Positions 30,062 to 56,069 of a stretch of DNA of 62,487 nucleotides are shown here, piece by piece. Both the position numbers and the translations under genes were made by a program. Under the pieces are notes generated by a model. It saw nothing but the letters and a program-made list of their open reading frames with translations. It was not told the origin of the DNA and did not search any database. Position 1 is the first letter of the stretch. Each line of letters opens with the position of its first letter. The stretch spans positions 1-62,487 of the forward strand of contig JAJRSG010000231.1 in assembly GCA_024278915.1 (NCBI GenBank), read 5' to 3'. This DNA is from Alphaproteobacteria bacterium. Lineage in GTDB: Bacteria > Pseudomonadota > Alphaproteobacteria > Caulobacterales > Maricaulaceae.

Positions 30062-30082
30062 TTGAATTTCCTTATTCTAAGC

Positions 30083-34484: not shown

Positions 34485-35051
34485 TTATTCTTGATCCATC
34501 AACTGTTCTAAATATTCATAAATTTCGTCGTCATGCCATTCTTTTGCACCCACTATTCTATCCCTCAGGCAGCCCGTGGAATCAAAAATCAGTGTTTCAG
34601 GCAGGCCAGCAACTTTCCATTTTCTGATTGTTACGACTTGTTGAGCATCAACAAAATTCGTAAATGAAATATCATTGCGATACAGAAATTCCCGCACAAC
34701 GATAGGCTGAACATTGTCAACACTAATCCCCAGGACAACGCCGTCGCTGGGCGGTAACCGATCGCTGAGGGCCTGCAAACTCGGCATTTCATAGCGGCAC
34801 GGCGGGCACCAGGTGGCCCAGACGTTTACAATAACCAGCTTGCCAAGATAATTCCCCAAATTTTCCCGTCCGCCATCAACCCTCTCAAGAACCGTATTAT
34901 CCAGAGTGATGGGGGTATCCGGGTTTTCCAAATCATACTGACAGGCCACCTCGTCGACCTGATCGCACGAAGCAATCAGCAGAGCCATCCCCAACACTAG
35001 AAATAGCCGAAAATTTCTTATTACAGGGGGTAAGTGAAAATTCTTTGTCAT
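34485..35051 (-). CDS. TlpA/ResA-like thiol:disulfide oxidoreductase lipoprotein
   Basis: WATWCPPCRYE thioredoxin motif. The start was moved to ATG 35051, giving lipobox LIAS-C with Asp at +2 (inner-membrane retention rule). The start overlaps the upstream stop by 1 nt (TAATG). Confidence 0.8.
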   Translation of the reverse strand: MTKNFHLPPVIRNFRLFLVLGMALLIASCDQVDEVACQYDLENPDTPITLDNTVLERVDGGRENLGNYLGKLVIVNVWATWCPPCRYEMPSLQALSDRLPPSDGVVLGISVDNVQPIVVREFLYRNDISFTNFVDAQQVVTIRKWKVAGLPETLIFDSTGCLRDRIVGAKEWHDDEIYEYLEQLMDQE

Positions 35052-35662
35052 TATTCTGTATTGATTGCCGGGTTGTCTGATCGGGTTGTTGTGTTTGATG
35101 AATTTGAAGACAGAGCCACAATCTGTTTCCATTCCCATATTGCTGCTTCTGCCTTGCGTTTAAAGGGGCTATCGTTTTTTGTTAAATGGATATAGGTGTT
35201 CATGGCCCCAATAGCGCCTTGAATGCTGCCAAGTTTTTCCAATGCCTCGGCCATACCATAATAGGCATTTGCCTGTTCGGGGCGAAGAATAGTGGCTTCA
35301 TCAAATGCATTATAGGCTGCCTGCCATTGCTGTGTTTCCAAGAGCACGTAGCCGATATTAACATGAACTTCCGGAATGTTCGGGTTTCTTCTGTGCGCCA
35401 GTTCAAACATCGCCAAGGCATCTTTAGGGCGTCCCTGGCGCATCAATTCAAGGCCTTTGTAAAAATGCTCTGCAAATTCTCCTTTGTGTTTTCTGCCTTG
35501 TACGACCGGTGGAGTTTTATCGGTTTGCCCTGGGTTTTCCATAACCGGGGCAACCAGGGTCGGTTGCAGCGCCGGTTTATTCAACAGATACCCCCCCATA
35601 GCGACACTAACGACCACCAAAGCCAAGGCAAAGGGGAGGCGGTGTTTGCGTTTTATTAACAT
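35051..35662 (-). CDS. Membrane-anchored TPR-repeat protein
   Basis: The start was moved to ATG 35662 (MLIKRKHRLPFALALVVVSV... TM anchor), overlapping the ccsA stop by 1 nt (TGATG). TPR units (ALAMFELAHRRNPN, AYNAFDEATILRPE, YYGMAEALEKLG). Confidence 0.7.
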   Translation of the reverse strand: MLIKRKHRLPFALALVVVSVAMGGYLLNKPALQPTLVAPVMENPGQTDKTPPVVQGRKHKGEFAEHFYKGLELMRQGRPKDALAMFELAHRRNPNIPEVHVNIGYVLLETQQWQAAYNAFDEATILRPEQANAYYGMAEALEKLGSIQGAIGAMNTYIHLTKNDSPFKRKAEAAIWEWKQIVALSSNSSNTTTRSDNPAINTE

Positions 35663-36495
35663 CAGACCGCCCCCTGGTGAGCTGCGTAGGAGAAAAATGG
35701 AACGCCATAAAATGTCAGGAAAGCCAAAACAAATGTCAGCAGAATAAGACAGGCGTTTATAACCGGCAAGCTGTGTTGAATATAGCGCAAATGCATATAG
35801 AAAATGACACATATCCAGGTCAAAAAGGACCACGTTTCAAGCGGATCCCAGGCCCAGTATCGACCCCAGGCATCCTGCGCCCAGATCGCTCCGACGATCA
35901 GCATCAGAGTTTGAAAGACAAAGCCAACCAGCATGAAACGGGCTGAAAGCTCATCAAGTGCTCCGGTGGCGGGCATGGTTGGAAAATATAAGGCCGCATT
36001 ATCCGCTAGTTCCTGACGTTCGCCATACTGCCGCATCAATATAATCAGCGAAATAGATGATGCGATGACTACGCAACCAATAAAGATTTTACCGACGATG
36101 ACATGTACCGGCAGCCAGATGGTATCGAACGTGATAGCGACCAACGCATCCCTTGGTTCAACAACCAGGTTCCATATAACCATAACGCTCAGGATTGGCA
36201 GCACCACAGCGAGAATGGGACGAATACGTTCAACCATTAAACAGGCAATTATAATTGCCAGATGATAGCCCCATACTCCACTGCTGATGACCTCCCAGAA
36301 ATCAACATAGGGGCCGTGACCCTGGCGGACCCACCGCAACGTCAGCGATAGGGTATTACCTGCCAAGGCAAAGCCAAGGAAAAACAATACGGGTTTCCAT
36401 CCGGGCTTACCATATTTCGCCGTCCCAATAGCGCCAAGCGTGGCCAGGAGGTAAAAGCCCGTGGAAAAGTAAAAAAAGTAAAATTCAGTCAACAT
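35662..36495 (-). CDS. ccsA: Cytochrome c biogenesis System II haem-handling protein CcsA/ResC
   Basis: Trp-rich WWD motif WAQDAWGRYWAWDPLETW. Polytopic, 277 aa. Confidence 0.85.
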   Translation of the reverse strand: MLTEFYFFYFSTGFYLLATLGAIGTAKYGKPGWKPVLFFLGFALAGNTLSLTLRWVRQGHGPYVDFWEVISSGVWGYHLAIIIACLMVERIRPILAVVLPILSVMVIWNLVVEPRDALVAITFDTIWLPVHVIVGKIFIGCVVIASSISLIILMRQYGERQELADNAALYFPTMPATGALDELSARFMLVGFVFQTLMLIVGAIWAQDAWGRYWAWDPLETWSFLTWICVIFYMHLRYIQHSLPVINACLILLTFVLAFLTFYGVPFFSYAAHQGAV

Positions 36496-36509: not shown

Positions 36510-37511
36510 TCAGCGATTAAGCGGGTTTTCTAGTGAACTTTTCAATGAATATTGGGCGGCATCCCAAGGGGTAGAACGGATTTTTAAAAAGCAATGCCAT
36601 CCCAGTCCGCATACGGCGACCAGCGAGGCCGCCAGTATCCAGGACATGGCTGGATTGTAGTAAATACCGTAACCCATCCACGCCCGCAACTCGCCATAAC
36701 GCAAAGTACCCCCACCTATGGGCATGACTTGACCGGGTAGTAAAGTTGTGCGGACATCGTCCACAGTGACAACCAAAGAGGCATCCTTCGGTACTGAGAA
36801 CTGCCATTGGGCATCCTCGGTATAAATTGGTGCGGATAATTCAAGCCACAATGCTACTGTCTTGGCTGTGTCTGGTGCCGTCCAGCTATTGGCTTGCACG
36901 GCCTCATTGAGCGGGTATCCCGGAAAATGAACACTGCCAGTCGATATTTGTCCGGCCTTGTCCGTATAACTGAGCAAAGTGGCAAATCCTTTGTTTGACG
37001 TAGTATAAAAACGGTAGCCGTTGATGATCAGCGGATAATGATCTCCGACAATCTGTTCATCCCATTTGCCGTCGGGGCCTTGAATTTTCACGGTGCTGTA
37101 GGTTTCACGGCGGGTCATTCCGGGTTTGTAATTAATGCTGAACGGACCCTGAATAAACCGTATTCTATGAAGAGTATCTCTATTCAAGGAACCATTCATA
37201 ACAGTAATCTGGTTCGGGTCAAATTCACTGCCTTCCGTCAGTTCAATGCTGGCGATCACAGCGCTTAATTGCCCGAAGGCTGCTAGCCCGGCCACGGCAG
37301 CGAGGGCTAAATGGAAAACCAGCAAACCGCCTTGAGTACGCAATTTCCTATTGTAAACAATAGCCACCATCAGGTTGAGACACAATCCAACCAATGGCAT
37401 AGCAATGAGCTTCCCGGAAACCGTTTCATCGACCATTCTGCTGTATAAAAGCAGAGCTGCCGCAATAGTCAGCAATATGAGTGTCAACCAGATTGAAGCC
37501 AGAAACTTCAT
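36510..37511 (-). CDS. ccsB: ResB/CcsB-like cytochrome c biogenesis protein (short form)
   Basis: N-terminal MKFLASIWLTLILLTIAAALLL, further TM segments, a large periplasmic loop and a C-terminal TM. It lies immediately upstream of ccsA. 333 aa is shorter than typical ResB. Confidence 0.65.
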   Translation of the reverse strand: MKFLASIWLTLILLTIAAALLLYSRMVDETVSGKLIAMPLVGLCLNLMVAIVYNRKLRTQGGLLVFHLALAAVAGLAAFGQLSAVIASIELTEGSEFDPNQITVMNGSLNRDTLHRIRFIQGPFSINYKPGMTRRETYSTVKIQGPDGKWDEQIVGDHYPLIINGYRFYTTSNKGFATLLSYTDKAGQISTGSVHFPGYPLNEAVQANSWTAPDTAKTVALWLELSAPIYTEDAQWQFSVPKDASLVVTVDDVRTTLLPGQVMPIGGGTLRYGELRAWMGYGIYYNPAMSWILAASLVAVCGLGWHCFLKIRSTPWDAAQYSLKSSLENPLNR

Positions 37512-37526: not shown

Positions 37527-39935
37527 TCAGGGGGCGTCTTGGCAGGTGTCTTTCATCCAGTCTTTACCCGTATTGCCGGGTTTTCCACAATCATTTTCCC
37601 GCCATGTACCGCTCTTGCGCCAGTTTACAATGCGCAGTGAAGCGTTCCGGTAATAAGGTGCATAACTATAGAAATTTGTCGCCACACTGGTGCCCGGTGA
37701 TTGACCGCCTTCGGGTCCTACATCGTTAAGATTAACCAATAAAGCCTTGTTTTTCCAACCATGGGGCAATGCTACATGGCAATAATTACACTTGATGCCC
37801 GTATCAATACGCTTGGCATGGAGACCATGCAGGTTGTTGTCACGATCACAGCAAAAACCACTTTTGGTGGAATTTTCCGTGGCATAGTTGTTGTAGCTAT
37901 GGCACATGAAACAAAGATCGTTGCTACTGCCCTGGCCCGTCCCGGCATCATAATCGCCTTTTAAAATAAACGGTTTACTTGATCCATGTGGCCCCCACGA
38001 ATTGCCGTCGTCACCGCCGCTGGGCTCAACGGTTCCAGAAGCCGTTGAGGAACCATGACAATCACTGCAATACATAGTCTGGTTGCCCATATCAGCGCTA
38101 CCGTTCCACGGTGAGAGGAACATTGAGCTCTGGTTCATACTTCCCCGAACGGAATACGTTCGCCCGGTTGCCGCCATGGCGGGATGCCAGGACCGGTGGT
38201 TGACGGTTATCTCACCCACATCCTCGCTGGGGGCTACGAACTCCATAGCCTGGTTCGTATAATTAGAAGGGCCACTTCCCGTCGGAGAAGGATAATTGGG
38301 GGTGGCCGCACCCAACGCCGGGGCACCCGTATTATTGGGATTGCCATCTTGTGTGATAGCATCAGGGTATCCATAATTTGAATGGCATTTCAGACAAACC
38401 TGATATTCCCGGGTCACATAGATATTGGTGACATCCGTGCTCGCCCCTGAGGTCGGATAACCTTTCTTGACAGTGAAATTAACCGGTTCCTCGCCGAAGG
38501 TAACAGACGACGTCGATGAGTAAATCGGCTCAACACCCCATGCACCGCTTAAAACACCCGATGCCAGATTGGTATGTCCTGAGCTATGGGTATGGGTTCC
38601 CACCGCATCAGGAATATTGCCGTTACCATTGAACAGCCGGGTTTTGATAACCCGGTGGGGATTATGACAGTCGGTACATTCAACATGCCTGTTCGAGGGG
38701 GTTGTGCGCCCAAGTTTAGCCGGGGTTTCAAGAAAATCAGCGCCGGATTTGCTTGCCACGACGGTGCCAATGTCATGGGCCTCGTTGGTTATATCAATGG
38801 GCATGGACCGCAACAGGGCAAAGTCAGTTTCAATGTCGGGAACCAGATTATTTACTGAACTCAAAATGCTGTTGCCACTCGAAGTGTGACATTGATAACA
38901 GGTCTCTTCGATAGCCGAATTGCCACCGGTTTTTGGTGAAAGGAGGCTATCGGTTCCTTCACGGAGCAGGCGTCTGGAGCCTTCAACTGTGTGAGTATCA
39001 TGACAGTTCAGGCAGGCGGCTTTCCAGACCGGAATGTCTGCCGGAAAATCTCTCAGGTCTGTTGCTCCCGGAAGATATGTTTCGTTGGCCACCGAACTGA
39101 TGGCATGAGCCGAGCTAGACCAACCGGATTTATTATGGCAGCCCAGACACAGGATGTCGGTAGTTTCATTATAGCTGCCACTGGATGGTGCCGCAGTCTG
39201 AAAGCGATTGTGGCGTAAAAACTTGATAGATTCTCCCGAAAGATCGCGAATATGGGGGTCATGGCAGCTCGAACATTGCAGTTTCCCATCCTCTAAGGGA
39301 ATCAGAGGTGGACTGACGCCGACTGTCCTGTTGTTGATCCAGGTTACCAACTCAGGATCGAACAATTCACCGTCAGAATTGGATAAGTCAGTATCGTAAT
39401 CAAAGGAAATCGGATGATCATTGGTCAGATTACTACCTAGATTACGGGTGAAACCGGAAGAGCTTCCATAGGTTCCAACAGGCATCTTGTCATTGGTCGT
39501 GCCGAACATGGAAATATCTTGACCTGAGGGCAATCCATTGAGCGCATTAACATTACCAATTGCTATAGTCCCATCATGACACGACAGGCAAAGCTTACTG
39601 CTGCCTCCAGGTTGACCCAACCCAGTTGCATCCAGGGATGAAGAAGAATAAGGGGTATAACTGGTTGATGATAAGGAGCGATTCCACAGCGGCGCGGCGA
39701 CAGAAATATCGGCCCCGTGTGGTGTATGACAAAAGACACACACCTGAGTTTCAGATTGTGCCGTAACATCTCCGGGGCCGCTAACCGAAAGGTTGTGTTT
39801 TGTATTAACCACATCTGAAATACGTTCGGCCTGTACAGGCGAAGCAACAAGCCCGGCAATAAGCATTACCAAAACACGGCAAAACGGGGGTACCCAATTA
39901 AAACGGTCTACGCAAAACAAGACATATATATTCAT
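37527..39935 (-). CDS. Secreted 11-haem c-type cytochrome (802 aa)
   Basis: Signal peptide (...SPVQA/ER). Eleven CXXCH motifs: CVFCH, CLSCH, CSSCH, CLGCH, CLNCH, CYQCH, CTDCH, CLKCH, CSDCH, CFMCH, CNYCH. Confidence 0.9.
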   Translation of the reverse strand: MNIYVLFCVDRFNWVPPFCRVLVMLIAGLVASPVQAERISDVVNTKHNLSVSGPGDVTAQSETQVCVFCHTPHGADISVAAPLWNRSLSSTSYTPYSSSSLDATGLGQPGGSSKLCLSCHDGTIAIGNVNALNGLPSGQDISMFGTTNDKMPVGTYGSSSGFTRNLGSNLTNDHPISFDYDTDLSNSDGELFDPELVTWINNRTVGVSPPLIPLEDGKLQCSSCHDPHIRDLSGESIKFLRHNRFQTAAPSSGSYNETTDILCLGCHNKSGWSSSAHAISSVANETYLPGATDLRDFPADIPVWKAACLNCHDTHTVEGSRRLLREGTDSLLSPKTGGNSAIEETCYQCHTSSGNSILSSVNNLVPDIETDFALLRSMPIDITNEAHDIGTVVASKSGADFLETPAKLGRTTPSNRHVECTDCHNPHRVIKTRLFNGNGNIPDAVGTHTHSSGHTNLASGVLSGAWGVEPIYSSTSSVTFGEEPVNFTVKKGYPTSGASTDVTNIYVTREYQVCLKCHSNYGYPDAITQDGNPNNTGAPALGAATPNYPSPTGSGPSNYTNQAMEFVAPSEDVGEITVNHRSWHPAMAATGRTYSVRGSMNQSSMFLSPWNGSADMGNQTMYCSDCHGSSTASGTVEPSGGDDGNSWGPHGSSKPFILKGDYDAGTGQGSSNDLCFMCHSYNNYATENSTKSGFCCDRDNNLHGLHAKRIDTGIKCNYCHVALPHGWKNKALLVNLNDVGPEGGQSPGTSVATNFYSYAPYYRNASLRIVNWRKSGTWRENDCGKPGNTGKDWMKDTCQDAP

Positions 39936-39946
39936 ATCACTCCCCG

Positions 39947-40999
39947 TTATCGCTTCTTGCTAAGTTCGCGAAAAATCGAAACCCGTCCGTTAAACATGTC
40001 TGCCACATAGACGTTATCCTCGGTGTCGGTCCACACTCCGTTTGGCAGATAGAATTGACCATCTCCATATCCGGTTCCGCCAATCGGTAGTAAGAACTCC
40101 CCCGTGTTACTATAAATTAACAGGTGGTCAAAATAGGATTCAACAACATAGATGCGCCCATCGCCGCCTACGGCAATGCCTTTCGGGCGAACCATATTGC
40201 CCAAATTTATACCCAAACTACCGAATGTGAGGTGGTTATCCAGGTTGCCGTCAATAACCTGGATACGAAAATTAAGCGTATCGGTAATATATAATCGGGA
40301 CTCTACAAATGTTAGATGCGTCGGGCTATTGAACTCTCCTACCCCAGATCCTCTGGTGCCTATCACATCGATCAGATTACCATCATCGGTGAATACCTTA
40401 ATATTGTGCTCAGCAGTATCGGAAACATAGATTATATGGCGGAAAGGATCCCGGGCGATCCCGGTCGGGCGATTGAGGACATCTTCGCCAAAATTGCCCA
40501 ATGGTATTCCATTTTCATCAATATGGAATACTTTTCCCAGCTCCGAGTCGGTAACAAAGAAGCCGCCTTTGCCATCTCCACTGATGGCGATTGGTGAAGC
40601 GTATGTGCTGAATTCGGAAATTCGATCCCATTTCAAGAATTGTTTTTGTTCCAGATCAAAAACCATAACGGCTTTGAGGGAGGCATCAACGACCAATATG
40701 CGGCCCTTTTTGTCCCGCATACCGCTTATGGGTTTATTAAGTTCCGTATATTTTTTCTCGCCATAAATCAACCCGGTCAGCCAGCTCATAACGGTCCGGT
40801 TCTTTTTGACTTCAGTTTCATTCTGAATAAAATCACGCTCGCCGATCAGTTGACCGACAAGAGAGTAATGGGGCGGATCGGGTGGTTGCGGCCAGACAAC
40901 ACTGTCCGGTGCAGGTTCGAGTACGATAGCAACCCGTTCTTCTTCAATGGCACATGCCGAAATGATTAACGTAAAAGCCAGAATGTTTAAAATTTTCAT
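39947..40999 (-). CDS. NHL-repeat beta-propeller lipoprotein
   Basis: Lipobox IISA-C. Repeated blades of the P.G(I/V)A.D..G.(I/L)YV(V/S/A)D type (e.g. GIARDPFRHIIYVSDT, GIAVGGDGRIYVVES, GVWTDTEDNVYVADM). Confidence 0.8.
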   Translation of the reverse strand: MKILNILAFTLIISACAIEEERVAIVLEPAPDSVVWPQPPDPPHYSLVGQLIGERDFIQNETEVKKNRTVMSWLTGLIYGEKKYTELNKPISGMRDKKGRILVVDASLKAVMVFDLEQKQFLKWDRISEFSTYASPIAISGDGKGGFFVTDSELGKVFHIDENGIPLGNFGEDVLNRPTGIARDPFRHIIYVSDTAEHNIKVFTDDGNLIDVIGTRGSGVGEFNSPTHLTFVESRLYITDTLNFRIQVIDGNLDNHLTFGSLGINLGNMVRPKGIAVGGDGRIYVVESYFDHLLIYSNTGEFLLPIGGTGYGDGQFYLPNGVWTDTEDNVYVADMFNGRVSIFRELSKKR

Positions 41000-42096
41000 T
41001 ACATTATACTATTTGTGTTTGGTTGCGGCGGCAACCAAGATTGCTTACCTCTAAGAGATTGAAATGTCTTCTCCGATAAAACCTTTATTACCTGTATGCG
41101 CCCGTTGTTGGTATCGGCAACATAGAGAAATCCGTCTGAAAACCAAATATCGGATGGTGAATCAAATTCACCTGGTCCTTTGCCGCGTGTGCCAAAGGTT
41201 TCCAATAATTCACCTTTTCGAAAAACAAGAATATTATGTTCCAGTCGATCGATGACATAAAACCGATTTTCATCATCGACGGTTATGGCTGCCCCGTCGT
41301 TGAACAGGTCCTTCGCGAAGGTCGATAAATATGTGCCGTCCAAACCAAAAACCTGAATTCGACGGTTCATGCCATCGATGATATAAAGTGCCATGCGCCC
41401 TTGTATCATGCTGCGAATATTTCGAAATTCACCAGCACCGTTACCGCGCCTCCCCATCCTGTACACAGGCTTGCCCTCGGAATTGAAAACAATAACGTGG
41501 TCAAAAAACCCGTCAGCTACGAATATTCGTTCAAGGCGTCGATCAACGGTAACGGCAACGGGATGGTTGAGATGCTTCTTGCTTTTGAAAATTTGTTCCA
41601 TTTCGCCATCTTCGGTGTAACGAACTACCTTCTGCCCATTGCCGTCCGATATATAAATATCGTTCTCTGCCGTAACGTAAATATCGGTCGGATTCATAAT
41701 ATCACTCAGGAAAGTCAGCCGATCCAAAGCTGGATGGGAGCGTCCATCATGTTCATCACTTATATGCTCAAATGAGTCATGGCCTTCGGTGTTCCATGAA
41801 AATTTGTTAAGGGAGCCTGTATGACCGTCGATTATAAACACATCATCCCCGTTTACGGAAACTCCAACTGGTTTTTTGAATAACCGTAATTCTGAATCTC
41901 CTGTCACAATAGTATAGGCTAGATTTTTCCCAGTGCTGGAGGCGTTCATGTATCCTGCAATCGTGGTCCAGGGAATAAGCCGGGAGGTTAAGCTGGCATT
42001 GGATGGAGAGTCATATAATTGCCGGTTCGCCTGGTTAGTTGTAGAAACACACCCGGTGACTAACAAAATAAATAGAGTTGTGCTGATACGCATCAT
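40999..42096 (-). CDS. NHL-repeat beta-propeller lipoprotein (paralogue)
   Basis: Lipobox LVTG-C. NHL-type blades (IFVADGFFDHVIVF, LYIIDGMNRRIQVF, LYVADTNNGRIQVI). The stop overlaps the next start by 1 nt (TAATG). Confidence 0.8.
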   Translation of the reverse strand: MMRISTTLFILLVTGCVSTTNQANRQLYDSPSNASLTSRLIPWTTIAGYMNASSTGKNLAYTIVTGDSELRLFKKPVGVSVNGDDVFIIDGHTGSLNKFSWNTEGHDSFEHISDEHDGRSHPALDRLTFLSDIMNPTDIYVTAENDIYISDGNGQKVVRYTEDGEMEQIFKSKKHLNHPVAVTVDRRLERIFVADGFFDHVIVFNSEGKPVYRMGRRGNGAGEFRNIRSMIQGRMALYIIDGMNRRIQVFGLDGTYLSTFAKDLFNDGAAITVDDENRFYVIDRLEHNILVFRKGELLETFGTRGKGPGEFDSPSDIWFSDGFLYVADTNNGRIQVIKVLSEKTFQSLRGKQSWLPPQPNTNSIM

Positions 42097-42635
42097 TCAT
42101 CCAACACTCTTTTATCACGAACGGAACTGTGACATCGAAAACAATCCGTTAAGGGGAACGATACCTTGCCATGACAGACACCACAAAACTCGCCCTTTAA
42201 AATCGTATACATATTTACAGGATTGGCATCCTTCTTTGGCAGGAAAATAGCCGTATGACAATTTGTACAGGATAGAATCAGGGAGTGATCATAATGCGGG
42301 AAACGGACATAAGGCATCGATCCTGTTTGTTGCATTATGACATCCATACTGATAGCGCGCATTATTTGGTCACCATAGATACTGGCACGTGGCTCAATCA
42401 GGGAATCATCCATGGCCTTAACCCAGTCCACATAATTGCCGGTCGGGCTTGACGGTAACAGGGAAAGCGCTTCGCTGGGCTGCTGAAGGTATTCTATTCC
42501 AGGGTTTTCCGGGTCATAGATGCCTTCCGTACCAAGCGGTGGGTGTAGGATGTCATACTCCTGAGCAAAACTTGCAGCTATGCCACTGCCCGACAAACAA
42601 ATAGTGAGGATAAAAAGCCAGTATCCAGATTTCAT
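42093..42635 (-). CDS. Periplasmic trihaem cytochrome c (c7/c3-like)
   Basis: Signal peptide. CTNCH, CGVCHGKVSF and CFRCH motifs. It shares the architecture ...VDWVKA...FPH..H...C.NCH...F......M..I..G..CG.CHGKV.FP...C..CHS with 43635..44468. Confidence 0.85.
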   Translation of the reverse strand: MKSGYWLFILTICLSGSGIAASFAQEYDILHPPLGTEGIYDPENPGIEYLQQPSEALSLLPSSPTGNYVDWVKAMDDSLIEPRASIYGDQIMRAISMDVIMQQTGSMPYVRFPHYDHSLILSCTNCHTAIFLPKKDANPVNMYTILKGEFCGVCHGKVSFPLTDCFRCHSSVRDKRVLDE

Positions 42636-42641
42636 TCAGGC

Positions 42642-43538
42642 CTACCCCGGTATAAAATTACCACCCATTCTGATTGCCCGAATGAGATTCTTTGTGGATT
42701 TATTCAAAATATCGGTGGCAGCTTCATAATTTCCGGATTTTGCTTCATTATCGGCATCTGCCCGCATTCCATCGGATTCTTCACGTAGTTTCTGTATGGA
42801 CAACAGCATTTTTGCCGAGGGTTTCTTTTCCTTAACTGTTATATCCAATAAAAAATAGTGGCTGTCGTTGCGGTCAATCTCATACAGATATTCATCTTTG
42901 GCCGTTTCGAAATTAAGTTCGCGTATCAGAGTAATGCCATCGCGAACCTCTATGGTAATCCGTATGGCGACATCATAAGCCTTGTCGACGTTCACGATTG
43001 CACCGTCTACCTCGCCATTTGTAATGTTGGATTTGGCCTGGTTTAAAAAGTCGTCGACCATCCGGCGCCGGGGTTCAAGACTTTCGTTGGCTGTTTGTTC
43101 GTTTGTGGTAATTTCATCAAACGTCTTCATCAAGGCAATAATAGTTGCCTTGCGTTCGTTGTAATATCTTAATGAATTCGTCTGGTCATTTGTAACTTTG
43201 GATTCTTTACGTGTAATACTCGTAACAAGTTTAACTATTTCATTAAGCAAGTTATTGGCAACTTCATAATCACCCTGCTGTACGCTAAGCTCTGCTTTTT
43301 TATAAAGAGCCTTAACATTGGCAATATCCTCGAACACATCCTCATCACCATGAGCTTCGATATTCTTAAAGGTTTTTGACCTTTTGATTAAATTACCAAT
43401 GAAAATAAATTTCTGATTCACCATAGATTCAGTAACCGGCAACCGTGATTGACCGCTTGTTTTTTCAACAGCATGGGCCGTACCCGCCCAAATTAAAAAG
43501 CTCAGCAAAATTACCAATGAATGCGTTATATATTTCAC
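42642..43538 (-). CDS. Secreted helical protein of unrecognised family (paralogue A)
   Basis: Signal peptide (...AGTAHA/VE) and a charged, helix-prone sequence. I recognise no known motif. It shares the block LNFETAKDEYLYEIDR with 59669..60697 and 61631..62371. Confidence 0.6.
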   Translation of the reverse strand: MKYITHSLVILLSFLIWAGTAHAVEKTSGQSRLPVTESMVNQKFIFIGNLIKRSKTFKNIEAHGDEDVFEDIANVKALYKKAELSVQQGDYEVANNLLNEIVKLVTSITRKESKVTNDQTNSLRYYNERKATIIALMKTFDEITTNEQTANESLEPRRRMVDDFLNQAKSNITNGEVDGAIVNVDKAYDVAIRITIEVRDGITLIRELNFETAKDEYLYEIDRNDSHYFLLDITVKEKKPSAKMLLSIQKLREESDGMRADADNEAKSGNYEAATDILNKSTKNLIRAIRMGGNFIPG

Positions 43539-43634
43539 TTTTTAGTACCCCTCAAAAATACAGGACAGGATCGAATTAACGAGAATTTGAAACCATAATC
43601 AAAATTTCCATATCATATATCTTTTATCAGTCTA

Positions 43635-44468
43635 TCATTGTTTCGCGGTAACCATGTCATCAACCAAGATGGCATCCTCAGCGTTGTCGCCAGATGTATT
43701 GCCTTCATTTGTAATAACGGCGGCAATATTCACGTCGTTTGAATATACCTGCAAAAGCGGCATGGCAGTTTCGGCATAACCATCCGGAACAACTTTCCTA
43801 TGGTCTTCAACCATGCCGATACTGCTCTGTTTGTCAGGGAGTGTTTTGGAGGACTTCTTTCGCTCAGAGCGTTTTAATTTTAATTGTTCAAGTTCTGCTT
43901 TGGTTTTTTTCTTCGAATGACAAAGACGGCATTCAGACAATGGGAAGGCAACCTTGCCATGACAAACACCACAATATTGCCCCATCAGGATCGACGCCAT
44001 ACTGATGTTATTACTACCTTTTTTTGGCGTAAATAATTTCGGGTGGCAATTTTTACAATCAAGCCATTGGGTATGTATGTCATGCGGATAAACCACATCG
44101 GGCATGGTGCCTTTGACCTGTCGGATAATATTCAGATCTAAAACCGTCATTTTCTTGGTATTGTCATAGCTACTGGTACGTGGATTTATATCTCCGTTAT
44201 TCAGCGCTTTAACCCAATCCACCCGGTTACCTCCACGGCTTTTAGGTAGCGACTCAAAAGCTTTTTTGGGTGTCTGAAGGGACAGTGTACCGATATCATC
44301 CGGGTCGTGGATGCCATCTTCCCAAGGCGGAAGGTTAAATTTATTTGCCCCTTTAAACAGCCGGTTAAATTTGTTTGCATCATCTTCGGCGGCAAAACTG
44401 AGCTGTAGCATCCCACTACCAAAAAGCAGGGCGCTTAAACAAATTGTCAGTATAATGCGTCTGTTCAT
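43635..44468 (-). CDS. Periplasmic trihaem cytochrome c (c7/c3-like) with Lys-rich C-terminal extension
   Basis: Signal peptide (...LSFA/AE). CKNCH, CGVCHGKVAF and CRLCH motifs. C-terminal ~95 aa tail (KKKTKAELEQLKLKRSERKKSSK...). Confidence 0.85.
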   Translation of the reverse strand: MNRRIILTICLSALLFGSGMLQLSFAAEDDANKFNRLFKGANKFNLPPWEDGIHDPDDIGTLSLQTPKKAFESLPKSRGGNRVDWVKALNNGDINPRTSSYDNTKKMTVLDLNIIRQVKGTMPDVVYPHDIHTQWLDCKNCHPKLFTPKKGSNNISMASILMGQYCGVCHGKVAFPLSECRLCHSKKKTKAELEQLKLKRSERKKSSKTLPDKQSSIGMVEDHRKVVPDGYAETAMPLLQVYSNDVNIAAVITNEGNTSGDNAEDAILVDDMVTAKQ

Positions 44469-44488
44469 CGCTTTGCTCCTTCGGCAAT

Positions 44489-44905
44489 TTATTGTCCGGT
44501 GACACCGGGCGGTATAACAAGACGGTCTATAGTGCTGTTATGAATCTGGGTCGGGGTGCCAGGTTTTCCAGAATGGCAAAGCGAACAGTTTTCTACAGAC
44601 CAGGCGATCTCGTCGTTGTGACAGGCACCACAATATTCACCATCAAATATTTTTAACATGGTAATGTCGTTGCCGCCGGCTTTGAATTCGAAGCCAAGAT
44701 CACTGTGGCAGACTTTGCAGCGAAATCGAATGCGATGGAACCAATGGGGAAATACAACGGGTCGCATCCCGGCATCATCGGAATAATTATTGATGACCAC
44801 ATCACCATATTCCGAACGTGCTTGTGAATTTGGAACTATCAGAAACCCAATCACTGCAATGAACATTGCAATACGCCTGAGGCGTGATTCCCAAAAAATT
44901 AGCAT
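44489..44905 (-). CDS. Small trihaem cytochrome c (c7/c3-like)
   Basis: CKVCH, CGACH and CSLCH motifs. The start was moved to ATG 44905 (aggggg RBS; MLIFWESRLRRIAMFIAVIGFLIV signal/anchor). Confidence 0.8.
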   Translation of the reverse strand: MLIFWESRLRRIAMFIAVIGFLIVPNSQARSEYGDVVINNYSDDAGMRPVVFPHWFHRIRFRCKVCHSDLGFEFKAGGNDITMLKIFDGEYCGACHNDEIAWSVENCSLCHSGKPGTPTQIHNSTIDRLVIPPGVTGQ

Positions 44906-45143
44906 ATCAGGCCCCCTAGTAAAATGTACCGCCCACAAGCCTGTCTTCTCACATCAAACCACAACTCGTCAAACATAATAATATTACCTAAATTAAGTCA
45001 CGCTGAACATGATCATGATATGATAACAGTAAACAATAATATCAAAGATATTTATTTATTATTGCAACAGGCTCCATAAAATTAGACTTGAACAGCAATG
45101 TTTATTACTATCCAGCGCACTCGGGAATGATACGGAAACCGGA

Positions 45144-45806
45144 TCATGGTATTTGCATGATATAGGTTGAGACATCGAGTACAGCCTGGTCATCAGACAA
45201 AATCAGCGACATTGATTGCATCTGTTGGCCGCGTTCATCCTTTACATGGGTACCACGCAGGCCGTTTCGGAAGGCATCCAACTGTTTAATCAGGTACCAG
45301 TCTGATTGGCCCGCCAGGCGTGGTGCAGAAATTTCTCTATTGCCTGCACCGTCTTCGCCGTGACAGAAAGTACAGTTTGCCAGCCAAATTTCTTTACCAA
45401 CCTCGGCATCTCCCCCCTCAATAACGGGTTCGGCTGCCATTAATTCCAGGGTGCTAATATAGCCAATAACATCAATAATATCCTGCTCGCTTTCCAGCAT
45501 GGTGGCCGCATCACGCATCATAGCACCGGAATCATCATCTTCGTTATAACCACGAAAACCAGCCAGGAACTTTATGATCTGGTTGTGCAAATACCACGGC
45601 TGTTGGCCATTCAGGCGCGGTCCAAGATCTTCAATGCCCTCACCGCCTTCACCGTGGCAGCCAGAGCATTCTTCGAAAAGAAGTTTACCATTTTCCAGAT
45701 CAGCCGATCTGGCAGTATTCATCCAAATGAAAACACTGAAGATCGTCACACAAATAAAACTAATAATATTATAACCGGATAAATTATTAATTATCTTGTC
45801 ATTCAT
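45144..45806 (-). CDS. Dihaem class I cytochrome c (c4-like)
   Basis: Two class I domains, CSGCHGEGGEG and CTFCHGEDGAG, each followed by a PRLAGQ/PRLNGQ segment. ATG 45806 is preferred to the ORF-track 45857. Confidence 0.8.
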   Translation of the reverse strand: MNDKIINNLSGYNIISFICVTIFSVFIWMNTARSADLENGKLLFEECSGCHGEGGEGIEDLGPRLNGQQPWYLHNQIIKFLAGFRGYNEDDDSGAMMRDAATMLESEQDIIDVIGYISTLELMAAEPVIEGGDAEVGKEIWLANCTFCHGEDGAGNREISAPRLAGQSDWYLIKQLDAFRNGLRGTHVKDERGQQMQSMSLILSDDQAVLDVSTYIMQIP

Positions 45807-45895
45807 TGAACACCCCATTGTATAAGAACTGATAACCTCAGGTAATTCTAATCTCATTGTAGAAGCGGGGTTATAGTAAATAAAAATATAAAAAT

Positions 45896-47956
45896 CTAGA
45901 ACTGTCGTCGAATATTAAAAGATAACGATGTGGCCCTGGGCGAACTTTCATTTTCTGACATCTTCAGGGTCAGGTCAGACCTGAGCATGCCCAGGGCAAA
46001 CTTCAACCCTACTTTCCAATCTCTGTTCCAACTTACAGCGTCTTCGGATTCTGTTGTAGAGGTCTTTAAAGACAGCGGAATCAGGGAATCTGACGAAAAT
46101 GTCAGAGAGGAAACAAAATTCAGATTTGGCATATCCAGAAAGTTAGACGCAATATAGTCAATGTTGCCATTTGAAGACGTCGTCCAGGGGGCTTTCGCGG
46201 TTTCACTGGTCTGGCGCGATGTCTGGGCGGAGACGGCGATAGATAGTTTGCTTTTCTGGGTTAAAGATAGAGTATTGTTGACTTGTAGATTAACCAGTTG
46301 ACGGGAAGATTTTTCCAGACCGCTCAGTGTACGTGAATCTGTAAAAGACACGCTGGAGGACGTCCATCGAGATTCGCTGCTATTGCTCTCAGATAATCTG
46401 AGTCCGTGACTCACACTGGTGCCGACGGGAGAATCAATCGATTTGTTTAAGGTAAGCCCTTCATTCCCGACTACCGACAATCGCGGAAATAATGGGAATG
46501 AGAAATCCCGCCGTATCGATTGATTAATATTGGCTGCCTGGCTGTGTGTTCGTTGTTCCGGGGTAATATTCGTTGATAGCGATCCCGTTGTTCCCCAGCC
46601 CCAGTTCCAATCTAATACTTTTTGCTGATCGCCCTTGTAAGATGCGGTCCCGGTCGCTCCGGTAGAAAGCACGGTCGACGCTTTAAGGGAGTTACTCGTC
46701 GTGGTCGTCGTCAAATCCGTTGATGAATAGCTGGCGTCCCCGGAAAATGTCATGTCGACTTTTGGCGAATACCTGTAGGTGATCCCAAGTTGACCATTCA
46801 AAGCCGAATCCATAATTTTCGTTTCTCCGGCCGAGCTTGAATTGCTGGTATCCGAGGTTGTCTTTAAATCAGCGAGGGTGCGCGATATGCCTGTAATGGT
46901 TATGGGTTGATCCCTCGGCGTCCAGCTCAGTGTGTATGTATTCTGAATCATAGCCTGTTCACTTTCAGATAAGGGGTTTTCGCTTGTGGAGAGCAACAGG
47001 GAAGAAATTGAATGATAGGTGACATTTTTCCACGGTGTATAACTGTGGCGAAGCGATATTGAGTTCGACAGGCTTTCAGAGTCTTCACTGTTCACCATAT
47101 CTTCAAACAAAAACAATGAGCTGGATGTTTGAAAATTAATCCGATGATCATCATAAATTTTGCTAACACCAAATGTATTCTGATAGGACGTCTGGTTCGA
47201 CTCTTCTTCACGTTCCGTTGTGTTAACCGATGTCCTCAACTTGAAATTAAGAGACGTATCCCATTGGTACAAAGCTGATAAAGTCAATATGTCTGATATG
47301 GTACTGGAACTGGTAGTTGCACTCGACAGGCCATTGGTGCTCGTTACGCTGGAATCCGATCTGCCATAAGAAAGCGTCAATGGATAACGGCTTAGAGGAA
47401 GAATGTTAAAACTTAAATTTCCGCTTATTCTTGTGGAGTTTGTATTGGATGTGCCGGTGTTGTTTAGCGATTGTGTAGCGTCAAAATCACCCTTTACGCG
47501 GGCAAACCATGGCTGCCAGATGTAAGAGCTCAGGCCTGCACCGCCAGTAAAAGAATTTTCCGATGTCTGATCACTTCCTGATTGCTGGTTGGCGGAAAAC
47601 CGGTAACCGGTATAGCCTGAAATTTTGGAGGCTGGAATTAACGACAAAAAACTGAAGCCATCGTCTTCCGCCGGATCGGCGGTGGCAAGTTGCAGTTGCG
47701 GTAGTGCCGGAAGGAGGTCTGAAATATCCGAGAGGCCACCAACTTGAGTGTTATTCGAATAACTTTTACCGTGGGAGAAAATCCCATGAGATGCTTGGGC
47801 AGGATCTGTAATCGCCAGGCACCAGCCTGCCAACAGCCCGCAAATTATATAAATCCTGCTGACAGAATAAAAGAATTTGGTTCTGAAGCTAATTGAAATG
47901 ATCAGATTTAAATTGATCTTTCTAAATGAGTTTTCTGGTAGGAATCGTTTTTTCAT
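45896..47956 (-). CDS. Putative outer-membrane beta-barrel protein (porin-like), Ser/Thr/Asn-rich
   Basis: 686 aa with an N-terminal hydrophobic signal (...GWCLAITDPAQA/SH). The composition alternates and is rich in S/T/N/G with no long hydrophobic helices. The C-terminus ...SLSFNIRRQF ends in Phe, as in OM beta-barrels. First gene of the cytochrome operon. Confidence 0.6.
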   Translation of the reverse strand: MKKRFLPENSFRKINLNLIISISFRTKFFYSVSRIYIICGLLAGWCLAITDPAQASHGIFSHGKSYSNNTQVGGLSDISDLLPALPQLQLATADPAEDDGFSFLSLIPASKISGYTGYRFSANQQSGSDQTSENSFTGGAGLSSYIWQPWFARVKGDFDATQSLNNTGTSNTNSTRISGNLSFNILPLSRYPLTLSYGRSDSSVTSTNGLSSATTSSSTISDILTLSALYQWDTSLNFKLRTSVNTTEREEESNQTSYQNTFGVSKIYDDHRINFQTSSSLFLFEDMVNSEDSESLSNSISLRHSYTPWKNVTYHSISSLLLSTSENPLSESEQAMIQNTYTLSWTPRDQPITITGISRTLADLKTTSDTSNSSSAGETKIMDSALNGQLGITYRYSPKVDMTFSGDASYSSTDLTTTTTSNSLKASTVLSTGATGTASYKGDQQKVLDWNWGWGTTGSLSTNITPEQRTHSQAANINQSIRRDFSFPLFPRLSVVGNEGLTLNKSIDSPVGTSVSHGLRLSESNSSESRWTSSSVSFTDSRTLSGLEKSSRQLVNLQVNNTLSLTQKSKLSIAVSAQTSRQTSETAKAPWTTSSNGNIDYIASNFLDMPNLNFVSSLTFSSDSLIPLSLKTSTTESEDAVSWNRDWKVGLKFALGMLRSDLTLKMSENESSPRATSLSFNIRRQF

Positions 47957-48199: not shown

Positions 48200-48215
48200 T
48201 GGCACGAAACATGCA
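48200..48215 (+). promoter_or_regulatory. Sigma-54 (-24/-12) promoter
   Basis: TGGCACGaaacaTGCA. GG and GC have exact consensus spacing (TGGCAC-N5-TTGCA). It lies 288 nt upstream of ATG 48503. Confidence 0.7.
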
Positions 48216-48502: not shown

Positions 48503-49243
48503 ATGCGTAATTGGTTTGCAACTATTTTGGTTTATCTGATTTTGCTAGGTCTGAACGTCGGTGGTGTTAACGGTGCTGAACTTGTTGGCTCAAAGCATGA
48601 TCTTACATCATTGAACCAACGCGCCGGCATGGAGGCAATGACCGGCCTTGCCTTCAACGATTACAAAGACCCCTGTATTTATTGTCATTTACCCAACTAC
48701 ATTATTGACGGCGGTGAGGATACTCTCTCGTCGAGTCAGATACCAAGATGGAACAGGCTAACCAACGAAGATGGCTATCAATTGTATAGCAGCTTATCGA
48801 TCAGTTCGCTGCCCGATGAACTGGGGGCGGAGAGTCTGCTCTGCCTGTCATGCCATGATGGATCCATGGCCGTTGATACGGTCGTCAATAAACCGAGCGA
48901 CTGGGGCATCACCGATGAGGCCCCCATGCATATGCGAATTGATAGCGGTGGTGGCATTGATAAATGCACCCAATGTCACGATGGTACTACGGCGCATAAG
49001 ATGGATTCTGTTATCATCGGCACCGATTTGAGGGATGACCATCCAATCGGACTACGCTACGCAGGCTTAACGGGACAAGATGAATATTTCCGTCCGGGCC
49101 TTGGAACAGAATTTTCAAATGGTATAAAGCTGTTTGATGGAAAGGTCGAATGTGCTACATGCCATAATGTTCATGACGACGAAATATCACCATTTCTGAG
49201 AGTGGAGCAACGAAGACTATGTCAAACATGCCACAACAAGTAA
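48503..49243 (+). CDS. Secreted pentahaem c-type cytochrome
   Basis: Signal peptide (...GGVNG/AE). CIYCH, CLSCH, CTQCH, CATCH and CQTCH motifs. The protein ends ...CQTCHNK*. Confidence 0.9.
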   Translation: MRNWFATILVYLILLGLNVGGVNGAELVGSKHDLTSLNQRAGMEAMTGLAFNDYKDPCIYCHLPNYIIDGGEDTLSSSQIPRWNRLTNEDGYQLYSSLSISSLPDELGAESLLCLSCHDGSMAVDTVVNKPSDWGITDEAPMHMRIDSGGGIDKCTQCHDGTTAHKMDSVIIGTDLRDDHPIGLRYAGLTGQDEYFRPGLGTEFSNGIKLFDGKVECATCHNVHDDEISPFLRVEQRRLCQTCHNK

Positions 49244-50328
49244 TGCGTATTATTAAACATTATTCCTACCTTATTATTACTCTCGGTGTGATGTTTGCAG
49301 TAACTGGATGCAATTCAACGCCAAAAGTTACGAAGCCCGATGACTTGCAGTTGGTGTGGCCACTGCCGCCCAGTGAACCGCGTTTCTTTTTTGAAGGAAC
49401 AGTCCGTAGCAGTGCGGACATAATTGAGGAAACGGCTACCGAAAAATTCCAGCGCTTAGCAACGGGTGGGACATTTGCAGGCAAGGCAATGCAGAAACCA
49501 TTTGGTATCGTAGTCAAAAACGGAGTTGTTTATATCTCCGATACCGCAGCACGGAGAATTAGCGTTTACGATATTGATCGTAAACGCTACGAAGAATTCG
49601 GTACCGAAGGTGCAGGCAGACTTGCCAAGCCCATGGGCATTGCCCTGGATGAGGCCGGTACATTATATGTCACCGACGTTACGGCACGGCGGATTGTTAA
49701 ATTTGACAGCGAAGGAAACTATCTGGGTTCCATGGGGGATTCAGAACTCCTTACCCGCCCGACGGGCTTGGCAGTGTCGGCTGACGGTAAACGGATTTTT
49801 GTTGTCGATACGGGCGGTGTCGACAGTGATAATCACCGCGTCGTGGTGTTTGATAATCAAGGCGAACACCTGTTTAATATTGGTTCGCGTGGAAGTGAAC
49901 CGGGAGAGTTCAACCTGCCTCTTGGCGCCGTCATCACACCGGATAACACGCTGTTGGTCGTCGATGGCGGCAATTTCCGCGTTCAGGCTTTCTCGTTTGA
50001 TGGCGAGTTCCTATTTCAGATGGGGGCTATTGGCATTCGCTCAGGGCAGTTTGCCCGCCCCAAAGACATCGCCGTCGATCTCGGTGGAAATATTTATGTA
50101 ACCGATGCAGCTTTCGGCAATATCCAGTTATTTAACTCCAAAGGGGAGCTTTTGATGTGGGTCGGTCAACGCTCAACCGTGCCCTTACCCGGGCGCTATA
50201 TGCTGCCCTCGGGGGTCGCCATTGACCAATCAGATGGCCGACTTTACGTTGTCGATCAATTCTTTCGCAAGATGGATATATTCCGCCCCATCGGAACACC
50301 GGAACGGTTCACGAAGCAAACAAATTAA
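49243..50328 (+). CDS. NHL-repeat beta-propeller lipoprotein (third paralogue)
   Basis: The start was moved to ATG 49243 (TAATG overlap with the cytochrome stop), giving lipobox AVTG-C. NHL blades (VYISDTAARRISVY, LYVTDVTARRIVKF, IFVVDTGG, LLVVDGGNFRVQAF, IYVTDAAFGNIQLF, LYVVDQFFRKMDIF). Confidence 0.85.
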   Translation: MRIIKHYSYLIITLGVMFAVTGCNSTPKVTKPDDLQLVWPLPPSEPRFFFEGTVRSSADIIEETATEKFQRLATGGTFAGKAMQKPFGIVVKNGVVYISDTAARRISVYDIDRKRYEEFGTEGAGRLAKPMGIALDEAGTLYVTDVTARRIVKFDSEGNYLGSMGDSELLTRPTGLAVSADGKRIFVVDTGGVDSDNHRVVVFDNQGEHLFNIGSRGSEPGEFNLPLGAVITPDNTLLVVDGGNFRVQAFSFDGEFLFQMGAIGIRSGQFARPKDIAVDLGGNIYVTDAAFGNIQLFNSKGELLMWVGQRSTVPLPGRYMLPSGVAIDQSDGRLYVVDQFFRKMDIFRPIGTPERFTKQTN

Positions 50329-50587: not shown

Positions 50588-50603
50588 TGGCACGCTTTCT
50601 GCT
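50588..50603 (+). promoter_or_regulatory. Sigma-54 (-24/-12) promoter
   Basis: TGGCACGctttcTGCT with exact GG/GC spacing. It lies 85 nt upstream of ATG 50688. Confidence 0.7.
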
Positions 50604-50687
50604 TATGTTAACGCATAACTTTCATCAATTGCTTTAGATAGTTTGCTAAATCGGGCAGTTGCAGACTCTACCAGAGGGAATAATACT

Positions 50688-54729: not shown

Positions 54730-54952
54730 ATTTATCCAGATGTTTGCCTTAAACCCATTGGTGATACATAAGCATAAAAGAGTTTAAAGGTTAAGGAAGA
54801 TCAAGTTCCTTACGGTTAATTTTATGGATGATATTAAAGCAAATTATGTAATAATTAGATACTATAATGAGCACGGCAAGGTCGATTAAAATAATATTGA
54901 TAAGTTAATACGGGCTCCACCACGCCCAATATTGCAGAGAAAGAATACTCAT

Positions 54953-56059: not shown

Positions 56060-56069
56060 GATAAAATTG

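Follow-up and report, generated by a model that had tools for sequence, protein, structure and literature searches.

A divergent uet cluster with OmcE-family cytochromes in an alphaproteobacterial genome

Gene content and conservation of the locus

The DNA analysed here, referred to as the window, is a stretch of 62,487 nucleotides (nt) from an alphaproteobacterial genome (contig JAJRSG010000231.1 of assembly GCA_024278915.1; Caulobacterales, Maricaulaceae). It carries a locus that encodes an outer-membrane (OM) beta-barrel, a series of secreted multihaem cytochromes and NHL beta-propeller lipoproteins (Table 1). Judged by its gene content and order, the locus belongs to an already named family, the uet (undecaheme electron transfer) cluster, of which it represents a divergent copy; the system is not new. 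The cluster uetABCDEFGHIJ-ccsBA-TPR was named in Candidatus Tenderia electrophaga and related orders and has been proposed as an electron-uptake conduit (Eddie et al., 2022; bioRxiv 10.1101/2022.05.06.490989; mSphere 7:e00223-22). According to this work, UetA is a tetrahaem cytochrome, UetB a peptidyl-prolyl isomerase, UetC an OM barrel for which 28 strands and a pore of about 5 nm were predicted in Tenderia, and UetD, UetE and UetG are c7 trihaem cytochromes. Tenderia UetF carries the label ‘cupredoxin’, UetH and UetI are NHL proteins, and the undecahaem cytochrome UetJ is followed by CcsA/B and a TPR protein (Eddie et al., 2022).

All ten gene families are present in the window. From uetC onward the gene order is the published one (C-D-E-F-G-H-I-J), with the three c7 trihaem genes interleaved with uetF, two NHL genes directly upstream of uetJ, and ccsB, ccsA and the TPR gene downstream, the latter in the place of the NrfG-like gene described by Eddie et al. 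The window copy is distinguished by an inverted uetAB block, a c4 insertion and a short UetF. While uetA and uetB are co-directional with and upstream of uetC in Tenderia, they are found here in an inverted, divergent block. The dihaem c4 gene is inserted between uetC and uetD, and no homologue was found between these genes in any fetched locus covering that position. UetF has 298 amino acids (aa) and is devoid of the N-terminal domain of the 514-aa Tenderia type. Additional genes relative to Tenderia encode a five-haem OmcE-like cytochrome, a third NHL protein and a GGDEF-EAL protein. Moreover, the BatABD genes of Tenderia are not found downstream; a thioredoxin-like gene, a histidine kinase/sigma-54 response regulator pair and Reg_prop genes take their place, an arrangement common to many non-Tenderia loci.

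An initial annotation had described ten tightly packed minus-strand genes at 37527-47956 as a candidate for an uncharacterised trans-envelope electron conduit. The genes are real, and open reading frame (ORF) calls and translations reproduce their sizes, haem counts and targeting signals. Nine of them occupy this interval, however, and a small-ORF search yielded no further credible candidate for a tenth. Most junctions are tight (overlaps of 4 and 1 nt, gaps of 6-38 nt); the exceptions are the 205 nt that separate the c4 gene from the first trihaem gene and the 96 nt in front of the helical-protein gene. Pfam matches bear out the continuation into dedicated CcsBA genes and then the kinase/sigma-54 regulator pair, and hidden Markov model (HMM) searches against Pfam and NCBIfam recovered the class I cytochrome c, c7 trihaem (TIGR04257), NHL and Paired_CXXCH_1 domains. 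With a barrel inside a conserved cluster of secreted multihaem cytochromes that has its own CcsBA, the class of system was also named correctly. The right boundary, in contrast, splits the system: the divergent half at 48503-58252 with uetA, uetB, the five-haem paralogue and the third NHL gene was missed, and so was the OmcE kinship of UetA and of the UetJ N-terminus. Finally, the synteny was taken to be unassigned, yet it is the uet order named in 2022. The annotation would have been abandoned had this synteny already belonged to a characterised system, which applies half-way because uet is named but experimentally uncharacterised.

Table 1. Positions of the features of the uet locus and its surroundings (coordinates refer to the window).
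Feature	Position	Strand	Size	Characteristics
Two secreted Reg_prop beta-propeller proteins	28808..31168	-	417, 361 aa	Pfam Reg_prop
Sigma-54-dependent response regulator (NtrC type)	31638..32972	-		Sigma54_activat 4.5e-68; in 23 loci, up to 57% identical
HAMP histidine kinase	32969..34480	-		Pfam match; downstream partner in 22 loci
Thioredoxin-like (ResA/TlpA-type) lipoprotein	34485..35138	-		Pfam AhpC-TSA, Redoxin; downstream in 12 loci
TPR protein	35051..35833	-		Pfam TPR; likely start near 35665; found behind ccsA in 32 loci
CcsA, system II haem lyase subunit	35662..36495	-		Pfam Cytochrom_C_asm; position conserved
CcsB/ResB, system II cytochrome c maturation	36510..37511	-		Pfam ResB; follows uetJ in 41 loci
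UetJ, secreted undecahaem cytochrome	37527..39935	-	802 aa	11 CxxCH; signal peptidase I type signal (..VQA/ER)
UetI, NHL beta-propeller lipoprotein	39947..40999	-	350 aa	Pfam NHL; lipobox IISAC
UetH, NHL beta-propeller lipoprotein	40999..42096	-	365 aa	Pfam NHL, DUF5128; lipobox LVTGC; positional orthologues
UetG, c7-type trihaem cytochrome	42093..42635	-	180 aa	TIGR04257 58 bits
UetF-like secreted all-helical protein	42642..43538	-	298 aa	Corresponds to C-terminal ~280 residues of 514-aa Tenderia-type UetF
UetE, c7-type trihaem cytochrome	43635..44468	-	277 aa	N- and C-terminal extensions; TIGR04257 66 bits
UetD, c7-type trihaem cytochrome	44489..44938	-	149-aa ORF	Likely start at internal Met; TIGR04257 65 bits
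Dihaem c4-type class I cytochrome	45144..45857	-	237 aa	Two Cytochrom_C domains; 2 CxxCH
UetC-family OM beta-barrel	45896..47956	-	686 aa	S/T/N-rich; signal peptide ...AQA; C-terminus ...RRQF
Sigma-54 promoter-like site TGGCACGAAACATGCA	48200..48215	+		One mismatch to consensus; divergent intergenic region before five-haem gene
Five-haem OmcE-like cytochrome	48503..49243	+	246 aa	5 CxxCH; UetA paralogue
Third NHL beta-propeller lipoprotein	49219..50328	+	369 aa	Pfam NHL 2.6e-29; lipobox AVTGC
Sigma-54 promoter-like site TGGCACGCTTTCTGCT	50588..50603	+		One mismatch to consensus; intergenic, upstream of uetA
UetA, four-haem OmcE-family cytochrome	50643..51500	+	285-aa ORF	Likely start Met16; 4 CxxCH
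CHASE-PAS-GGDEF-EAL c-di-GMP signalling protein	51766..54729	+		Pfam matches; between uetA and uetB
UetB, SurA-like parvulin peptidyl-prolyl isomerase	54932..56059	+	375 aa	Pfam Rotamase
Two class I c-type cytochromes	56001..58252	+	432 aa (3 haems), 281 aa (2 haems)	Pfam Cytochrome_CBB3, Cytochrom_C

A scan of a UetJ alignment, with one genome per species, returned at least 582 relatives, and 80 loci were examined. These cover Gamma-, Beta- and Alphaproteobacteria and Nitrospinota, with forms of about 30% identity in Nitrospirota, Campylobacterota, Aquificota and others. The gene-order search that the initial annotation had suggested, carried out by BLASTP of the window proteins against the ORFs of each locus, recovered the full order A-B-C-D-E-F-G-(H)-I-J in 18 of the 80 loci, all from public genomes. 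With 18 loci that were fetched by UetJ similarity and keep the full order, the arrangement is far from chance. One of the 18 is a metagenome-assembled genome (MAG) of Candidatus Tenderia sp. (locus L017 in our numbering) with haem counts of 4/3/3/3/11 and sequence identities of 27% (UetC), 72% (UetD) and 46% (UetJ). The best overall matches are found in a MAG (L001), an alphaproteobacterial MAG (L014) and a Rhodospirillaceae MAG (L035), with 45-57% identity for most proteins and 20-83% overall.

In nine loci (L001, L015, L035, L129, L133, L137, L144, L150 and L152), a multihaem cytochrome gene, an NHL gene, uetA, uetB and uetC follow each other in the same direction. By comparison, the block from the multihaem gene to uetB is inverted in the window and contains in addition the c-di-GMP signalling gene, which is not found between uetA and uetB in the other fetched loci. 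On the other side of uetJ, the succession CcsB-CcsA-TPR-(thioredoxin-like)-histidine kinase-sigma-54 regulator-(Sel1)-two Reg_prop is kept in many uet loci. The conserved locus extends from about 28.3 to 58.3 kb, of which the interval described initially covers 37.5-48.0 kb. By this comparison, it is about twice the size of the named cluster and adds the kinase/sigma-54 pair, the Reg_prop proteins, the third NHL protein and the class I cytochromes.

OmcE-family cytochromes and the outer-membrane barrel

First, we focus on the cytochromes that share sequence with the nanowire subunit OmcE. UetA matches PDB entry 7tfs_A (232 aa), which we take to be the OmcE filament of G. sulfurreducens, over its full length (E=1.2e-27, residues 29-285 versus 5-232), and 9yuq_N, a 16-chain structure that is presumably an OmcE bundle of D. 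soudanensis (E=9e-25). UetA retains all four CxxCH of OmcE as well as its four distal-His motifs (KH, TPH, DHP, CHxxH), and it is 40-54% identical to the gene product at the uetA position in uet loci. The five-haem paralogue also aligns with 7tfs_A over its full length (E=4e-16) and has its additional CxxCH between haem 2 and the DHP motif. It fits the class of ‘5-haem OmcE-like’ proteins, which have been proposed as an uncharacterised nanowire family (bioRxiv 10.1101/2025.10.22.684050).

Over 6,400 homologues of UetJ were found, and the top matches are about 52-58% identical and about 790-815 aa long; beyond Tenderia, identities to its orthologues in many uet loci are 50-55%. An alignment of 25 sequences shows no variation in any of the 11 haem motifs, and 45 of 49 close orthologues contain exactly 11 CxxCH. 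Residues ~22-269 form an OmcE-like four-haem module (7tfs_A, E=4e-21) that is 33% identical to the UetA of the window, while residues 270-802 are a seven-haem extension without a sequence match in the PDB. By sequence comparison, the OmcE nanowire family is thus represented three times in the window: by UetA, by its five-haem paralogue and, within UetJ, by the N-terminal module.

Several further observations concern UetJ. Its OmcE-like module ends in ...CLGCHNK and OmcE in ...CLGCHKK, so that UetJ looks like a fusion, and two invariant cysteines (C783 and C798) are located near its C-terminus. A UetJ homologue of about 47% identity stands alone in four loci, with no other uet gene detectable within 10 kb on either side (L013, L040, L057 and L032, the latter from the cultured denitrifier Aromatoleum tolulyticum ATCC 51758). 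More remote loci from Nitrospirota, Campylobacterota, Aquificota, Bacteroidota, Ignavibacteria and others (L058-L082) encode UetJ-like proteins of about 600-1200 aa with about 30% identity and mostly 10-11 haems, and also hold NHL lipoproteins, OmcE-like four- and five-haem proteins and often a peptidyl-prolyl isomerase. The UetC HMM detects no UetC-family barrel in these loci; a different barrel or none may serve there.

The initial annotation had predicted that the 686-aa protein is a large beta-barrel rather than another fold. The AlphaFold2 (AF2) model, computed from a 50-sequence alignment, agrees: it has 28 long strands connected by short loops, a mean pLDDT (the per-residue confidence score) of 85.4 with values mostly above 90 in the barrel, and an empty lumen without a plug. 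The N-terminus is disordered (residues 1-96, of which ~56-96 follow the signal peptide). The strand number equals the one predicted for Tenderia UetC. UetC is fast-evolving and without a sequence match in Pfam, NCBIfam or the PDB. A word-indexed search returned only four relatives of about 24% identity, while an exhaustive HMMER search yielded 349 cluster representatives of about 580-690 aa that align to residues ~105-686. An HMM of this family matches the ORF at the UetC position in 34 uet loci, including Tenderia sp. (E=6e-114). A Foldseek search yielded no solved fold homologue; its matches were generic barrels of 22 and 26 strands (Cir, BtuB, LptD) with template modelling scores of 0.2-0.3.

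UetD, UetE and UetG carry signal peptides and three CxxCH each, and all pass the curated cut-offs of TIGR04257 (40 bits) and Pfam Cytochrome_C7. Identities to positional orthologues are 59-83% for UetD, 47-68% for UetE and 39-53% for UetG, which is a paralogue of UetE with 43% identity over the full length. A UetF-like protein was found by jackhmmer at the UetF position in more than 40 loci, the match in Tenderia sp. L017 covering residues 234-513. The AF2 model of the window protein (pLDDT 86) consists of ten helices; searches of Pfam and NCBIfam gave no match, and Foldseek against the PDB gave nothing below E=0.1. The longer Tenderia-type UetF has a single Pfam match, a weak one to PF25489, in the N-terminal part that is absent from the window protein. 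The only close relative of the window's organism that we have seen is a JGI metagenome contig (3300037628, Ga0310922_0059668; L163), on which a UetF-like protein 82% identical to that of the window is followed by the gene of a 180-aa c7 trihaem cytochrome. In nearly all loci, the gene directly upstream of uetJ encodes a protein with 37-56% identity to UetI, and in 45 loci a protein 30-40% identical to UetB is encoded between uetA and uetC.

The composition of the locus can be compared with known systems for extracellular electron transfer. The concept of a large barrel with OM-spanning multihaem cytochromes is shared with MtrCAB, PioAB and MtoAB. The parts differ: UetC has no MtrB_PioB match and 28 instead of 26 strands, a decahaem insert is lacking, as the initial annotation had noted, and the NCBIfam models for DmsE/MtrA (TIGR03508, 33 bits versus a cut-off of 192) and MtrC/OmcA (TIGR03507, 15-17 bits versus 209) score far below threshold, so that membership in these families was rejected. 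PCC3 combines a porin with a periplasmic 21-27-haem cytochrome and an extracellular 10-35-haem cytochrome, and Uet is treated as separate from it (PMC10734462). The haem counts in the window (2, 3, 3, 3, 4, 5 and 11) are unlike this description.

The closest parallel is the omcE cluster of Geobacter and Desulfuromonas. OmcE is a tetrahaem cytochrome that polymerises into extracellular nanowires, and in the minimal omcE cluster its gene is accompanied by those of two multihaem cytochromes, of two beta-propeller lipoproteins and of a large barrel that ‘putatively’ serves in secretion or as an anchor; resB/ccsB genes lie beside it, and OmcE homologues occur in Pseudomonadota (bioRxiv 10.1101/2025.10.22.684050). 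In Geobacter-like loci from metagenomes, we found resB-ccsA, cytochromes with 9 and 8 haems, one NHL lipoprotein, OmcE, another NHL lipoprotein, a barrel-like protein of about 750 aa that ends in F, and glycosyltransferases. The uet locus shares with these clusters an OmcE-family subunit with retained haem ligands, whose gene is directly preceded by that of an NHL lipoprotein and carries a sigma-54 motif in front. Both also have additional multihaem cytochromes, a large OM barrel and adjacent resB/ccsA genes. Geobacter-type clusters differ in having 8- and 9-haem proteins and no c7 trihaems, UetF, peptidyl-prolyl isomerase or UetJ-type undecahaem protein, and their hosts are metal reducers whereas uet hosts are mostly lithotrophs. 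Since homology of the two barrels is unproven, the barrel role common to both clusters is an analogy of composition and position. A minimal cluster of NHL, OmcE-like, peptidyl-prolyl isomerase and barrel genes was seen in a metagenome (L135, 11140-13023), where the 627-aa barrel is a weak match to the UetC family (E=2e-12) and may be an intermediate between Geobacter-type and uet-type clusters.

On this basis we consider it probable that the locus encodes an envelope-spanning electron path, in which extracellular electron transfer runs through the barrel via OmcE-family cytochromes. A lesser rival to this reading is that the locus is chiefly a nanowire secretion and assembly machine, with UetC as secretion or anchor pore, UetB as chaperone and the NHL proteins as morphology factors, while electrons take another route. 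Precedent comes from the G. sulfurreducens osc operon, which, as described in PMC13194489, is proposed to supply a prolyl-isomerase (OscH), channels (OscEFG) and a propeller (OscD) for OmcS (Shen et al., 2025). By that description it resembles the window in having a prolyl-isomerase, channel-like OM proteins and a propeller beside a polymerising cytochrome, although the hexahaem protein OmcS shows no sequence relationship to OmcE or UetA. Parts of these classes also occur in the window, and a porin model of secretion is favoured for OmcE (bioRxiv 10.1101/2025.10.22.684050). However, an 11-haem cytochrome and three periplasmic trihaems of high conservation are core parts of the operon, an argument for passage of the electrons through this complex itself, and homology of UetC to the Geobacter-type barrel was not demonstrated by hhalign. 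We therefore regard a pure assembly machine as improbable.

A second lesser rival, to which we give very little credence, is a periplasmic or OM redox system that acts on a soluble sulfur, nitrogen or metal species, with the barrel as substrate porin. Sulfur oxidisers and denitrifiers are among the hosts (Ca. Thiodiazotropha, Sedimenticola, Aromatoleum, Rhodocyclaceae), and NHL propellers can be enzymes. Yet every haem site is a plain CxxCH, neither a catalytic haem motif nor a cofactor-binding enzyme domain is present, the empty 28-strand barrel is far larger than a solute porin, and the closest solved homologues are extracellular nanowires.

Sigma-54 motif and neighbouring genes

Both the five-haem gene and uetA are preceded by a sigma-54 promoter-like site (Table 1). 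We scanned the fetched loci for TGGCAC-N5-xTGCW within 400 nt upstream of each gene, with GG/GC fixed and at most one mismatch. The motif precedes the OmcE/UetA homologue in 31 of 71 loci (44%, some contigs being near-duplicates), compared with 0-7% for other gene classes (UetC 0/30, UetD 0/70, UetB 0/45, UetJ 4/114). Both Pseudomonadota uet loci and Geobacter-like contigs are represented (among them L006, L014, L015, L035, L036, L055, L087, L092, L098, L101, L107, L116, L129 and L137). Across the window as a whole, sites with at most two mismatches are not enriched (46 observed, 36 expected), and scans for sigma-70 promoters and terminators stayed at background level. Filament subunits are often separately controlled. 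Expression of the OmcE-type subunit gene as a unit with its own control is likewise suggested by the motif before uetA/omcE and by the conserved pair of kinase and sigma-54 activator.

This bears on the main rival reading, a classical porin-cytochrome conduit that is membrane-bound and forms no filament. UetJ or UetA would sit inside UetC as MtrA does in MtrB, the other would cap the surface, and the complex would be monomeric. This is the original Uet model for Tenderia (Eddie et al., 2022). In its favour, the 11-haem UetJ is about as long as a membrane-spanning haem wire needs to be, and the AF2 model of UetC is empty and wider than MtrB. However, the locus has no member of the MtrA/DmsE or MtrB/PioB families, the only two solved members of the family of UetA and the five-haem protein are both polymeric filaments, and the separate sigma-54 motif on uetA suggests that UetA is made in different amounts. 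We hold a filament-free conduit to be somewhat unlikely.

Some of the neighbouring genes recur in other loci. The third NHL gene lies immediately upstream of uetA, and the same place is occupied in L001, L015, L035, L129-L152 and the Geobacter-like L084-L119. Homologues of the class I cytochromes (32-47% identical) flank uet divergently, just upstream, in L129, L133, L134, L137 and L150. Orthologues of the Reg_prop proteins (49-54% identical) follow the kinase/regulator pair in nine loci including that of Ca. Thiodiazotropha (L006).

Beyond the conserved locus, the right flank of the window (58306-59619, 59669-60697 and 61580-62371 on the plus strand, 60807-61481 on the minus strand) encodes two more secreted helical paralogues of the UetF-like protein (BLASTP 3e-4 and 3e-7). 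Two Sel1-repeat proteins and a further dihaem cytochrome of the c4 type are also encoded there; homologues of this flanking cytochrome and of the Sel1 proteins also border uet clusters elsewhere. A block of sugar-nucleotide and glycosylation genes at 14829-26612 (dTDP-sugar epimerases/dehydratases, nucleotidyl transferase, DegT aminotransferase, C-methyltransferase, B12-radical SAM enzyme and GT2) lies a few kb past the end of the uet locus where the regulator genes are. Glycosylation genes follow omcE clusters in Geobacter, where OmcE is glycosylated. The region at 1098-14412 is an apparently unrelated catabolic island with two TRAP transporter sets, amidase, amidohydrolase and FAA-hydrolase genes and a GntR regulator.

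Possible route of electrons across the envelope

The gene content is compatible with the following scheme for the envelope-spanning path. Apocytochromes would be exported by Sec and loaded with haem by a dedicated system II set composed of CcsBA, the thioredoxin-like protein and the TPR protein. UetB and the NHL lipoproteins may chaperone or scaffold assembly at the OM. The UetC barrel of about 5 nm would allow an OmcE-family cytochrome (UetJ and/or UetA) to cross the OM or to be anchored there, and UetA, perhaps together with the five-haem form, may polymerise outside the cell. In the periplasm, electrons would be relayed to or from inner-membrane complexes encoded elsewhere by the trihaems, together with the c4 dihaem and the class I cytochromes encoded nearby. 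The trihaem genes stand out in Tenderia, where all three are among the genes most highly expressed on cathodes according to its metatranscriptome.

Electron flow is probably inward, with oxidation of Fe(II), minerals or cathodes. This direction is favoured because the hosts are mostly lithoautotrophs and iron oxidisers (they include Tenderia, Gallionella, Leptothrix, Thiodiazotropha and Sedimenticola) and because the associated carriers are c4 and class I cytochromes. Such cytochromes typically feed cbb3 oxidases.

Several points weigh against the envelope-spanning path and its details. We found no genetic or biochemical study of any Uet protein in the literature. The presumed kinship of the barrels could not be substantiated, as an hhalign comparison of UetC with the omcE-associated Geobacter barrel gave a probability of 30% (E=5.5e-4) in an out-of-register alignment, and homology was not accepted. 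That UetA may form filaments is drawn from its homology to OmcE, and many OmcE-like tetrahaems may be monomeric. The NHL and peptidyl-prolyl isomerase domains are generic, which makes the roles assigned to them guesses. The probable direction of flow is drawn from host ecology and carrier type instead of sequence. Furthermore, an inner-membrane partner is not encoded in the window; in agreement with the initial annotation, no quinol dehydrogenase was found among the ORFs scanned (at least 150 aa to the left of the locus, the main ORFs to the right).

A bolder proposal, which is speculative and rather doubtful, is that Uet systems are the OmcE-type nanowire systems of Pseudomonadota and serve electron uptake instead of metal reduction. 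UetJ would thread UetC as an anchored base, UetA made under sigma-54 control would polymerise onto UetJ, and the five-haem paralogue would be a ‘leaky’ wire variant. OmcE is not mentioned by Eddie et al., and we found no literature that joins UetA or UetC with OmcE in the nanowire sense. If true, the proposal would account for the anchoring of OmcE-type wires and their connection to the periplasm, an open question in the nanowire literature.

Uet has recently been described as a porin-multihaem cytochrome complex in six Gallionella genomes (PMC10734462) and was named a candidate iron oxidase, still ‘predicted’, in a Leptothrix paper of 2026. The OmcE-family assignments, the greater extent of the conserved locus and the conservation of a sigma-54 motif before uetA/omcE are new here, in that they are not stated together in the literature we found, and they link the ‘porin-cytochrome’ literature on iron oxidisers with the ‘nanowire assembly’ literature on Geobacter. 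For neutrophilic iron oxidisers and cathode-oxidising bacteria such as Tenderia, Gallionella and Leptothrix, Uet is one of few candidate routes of electron uptake from solids.

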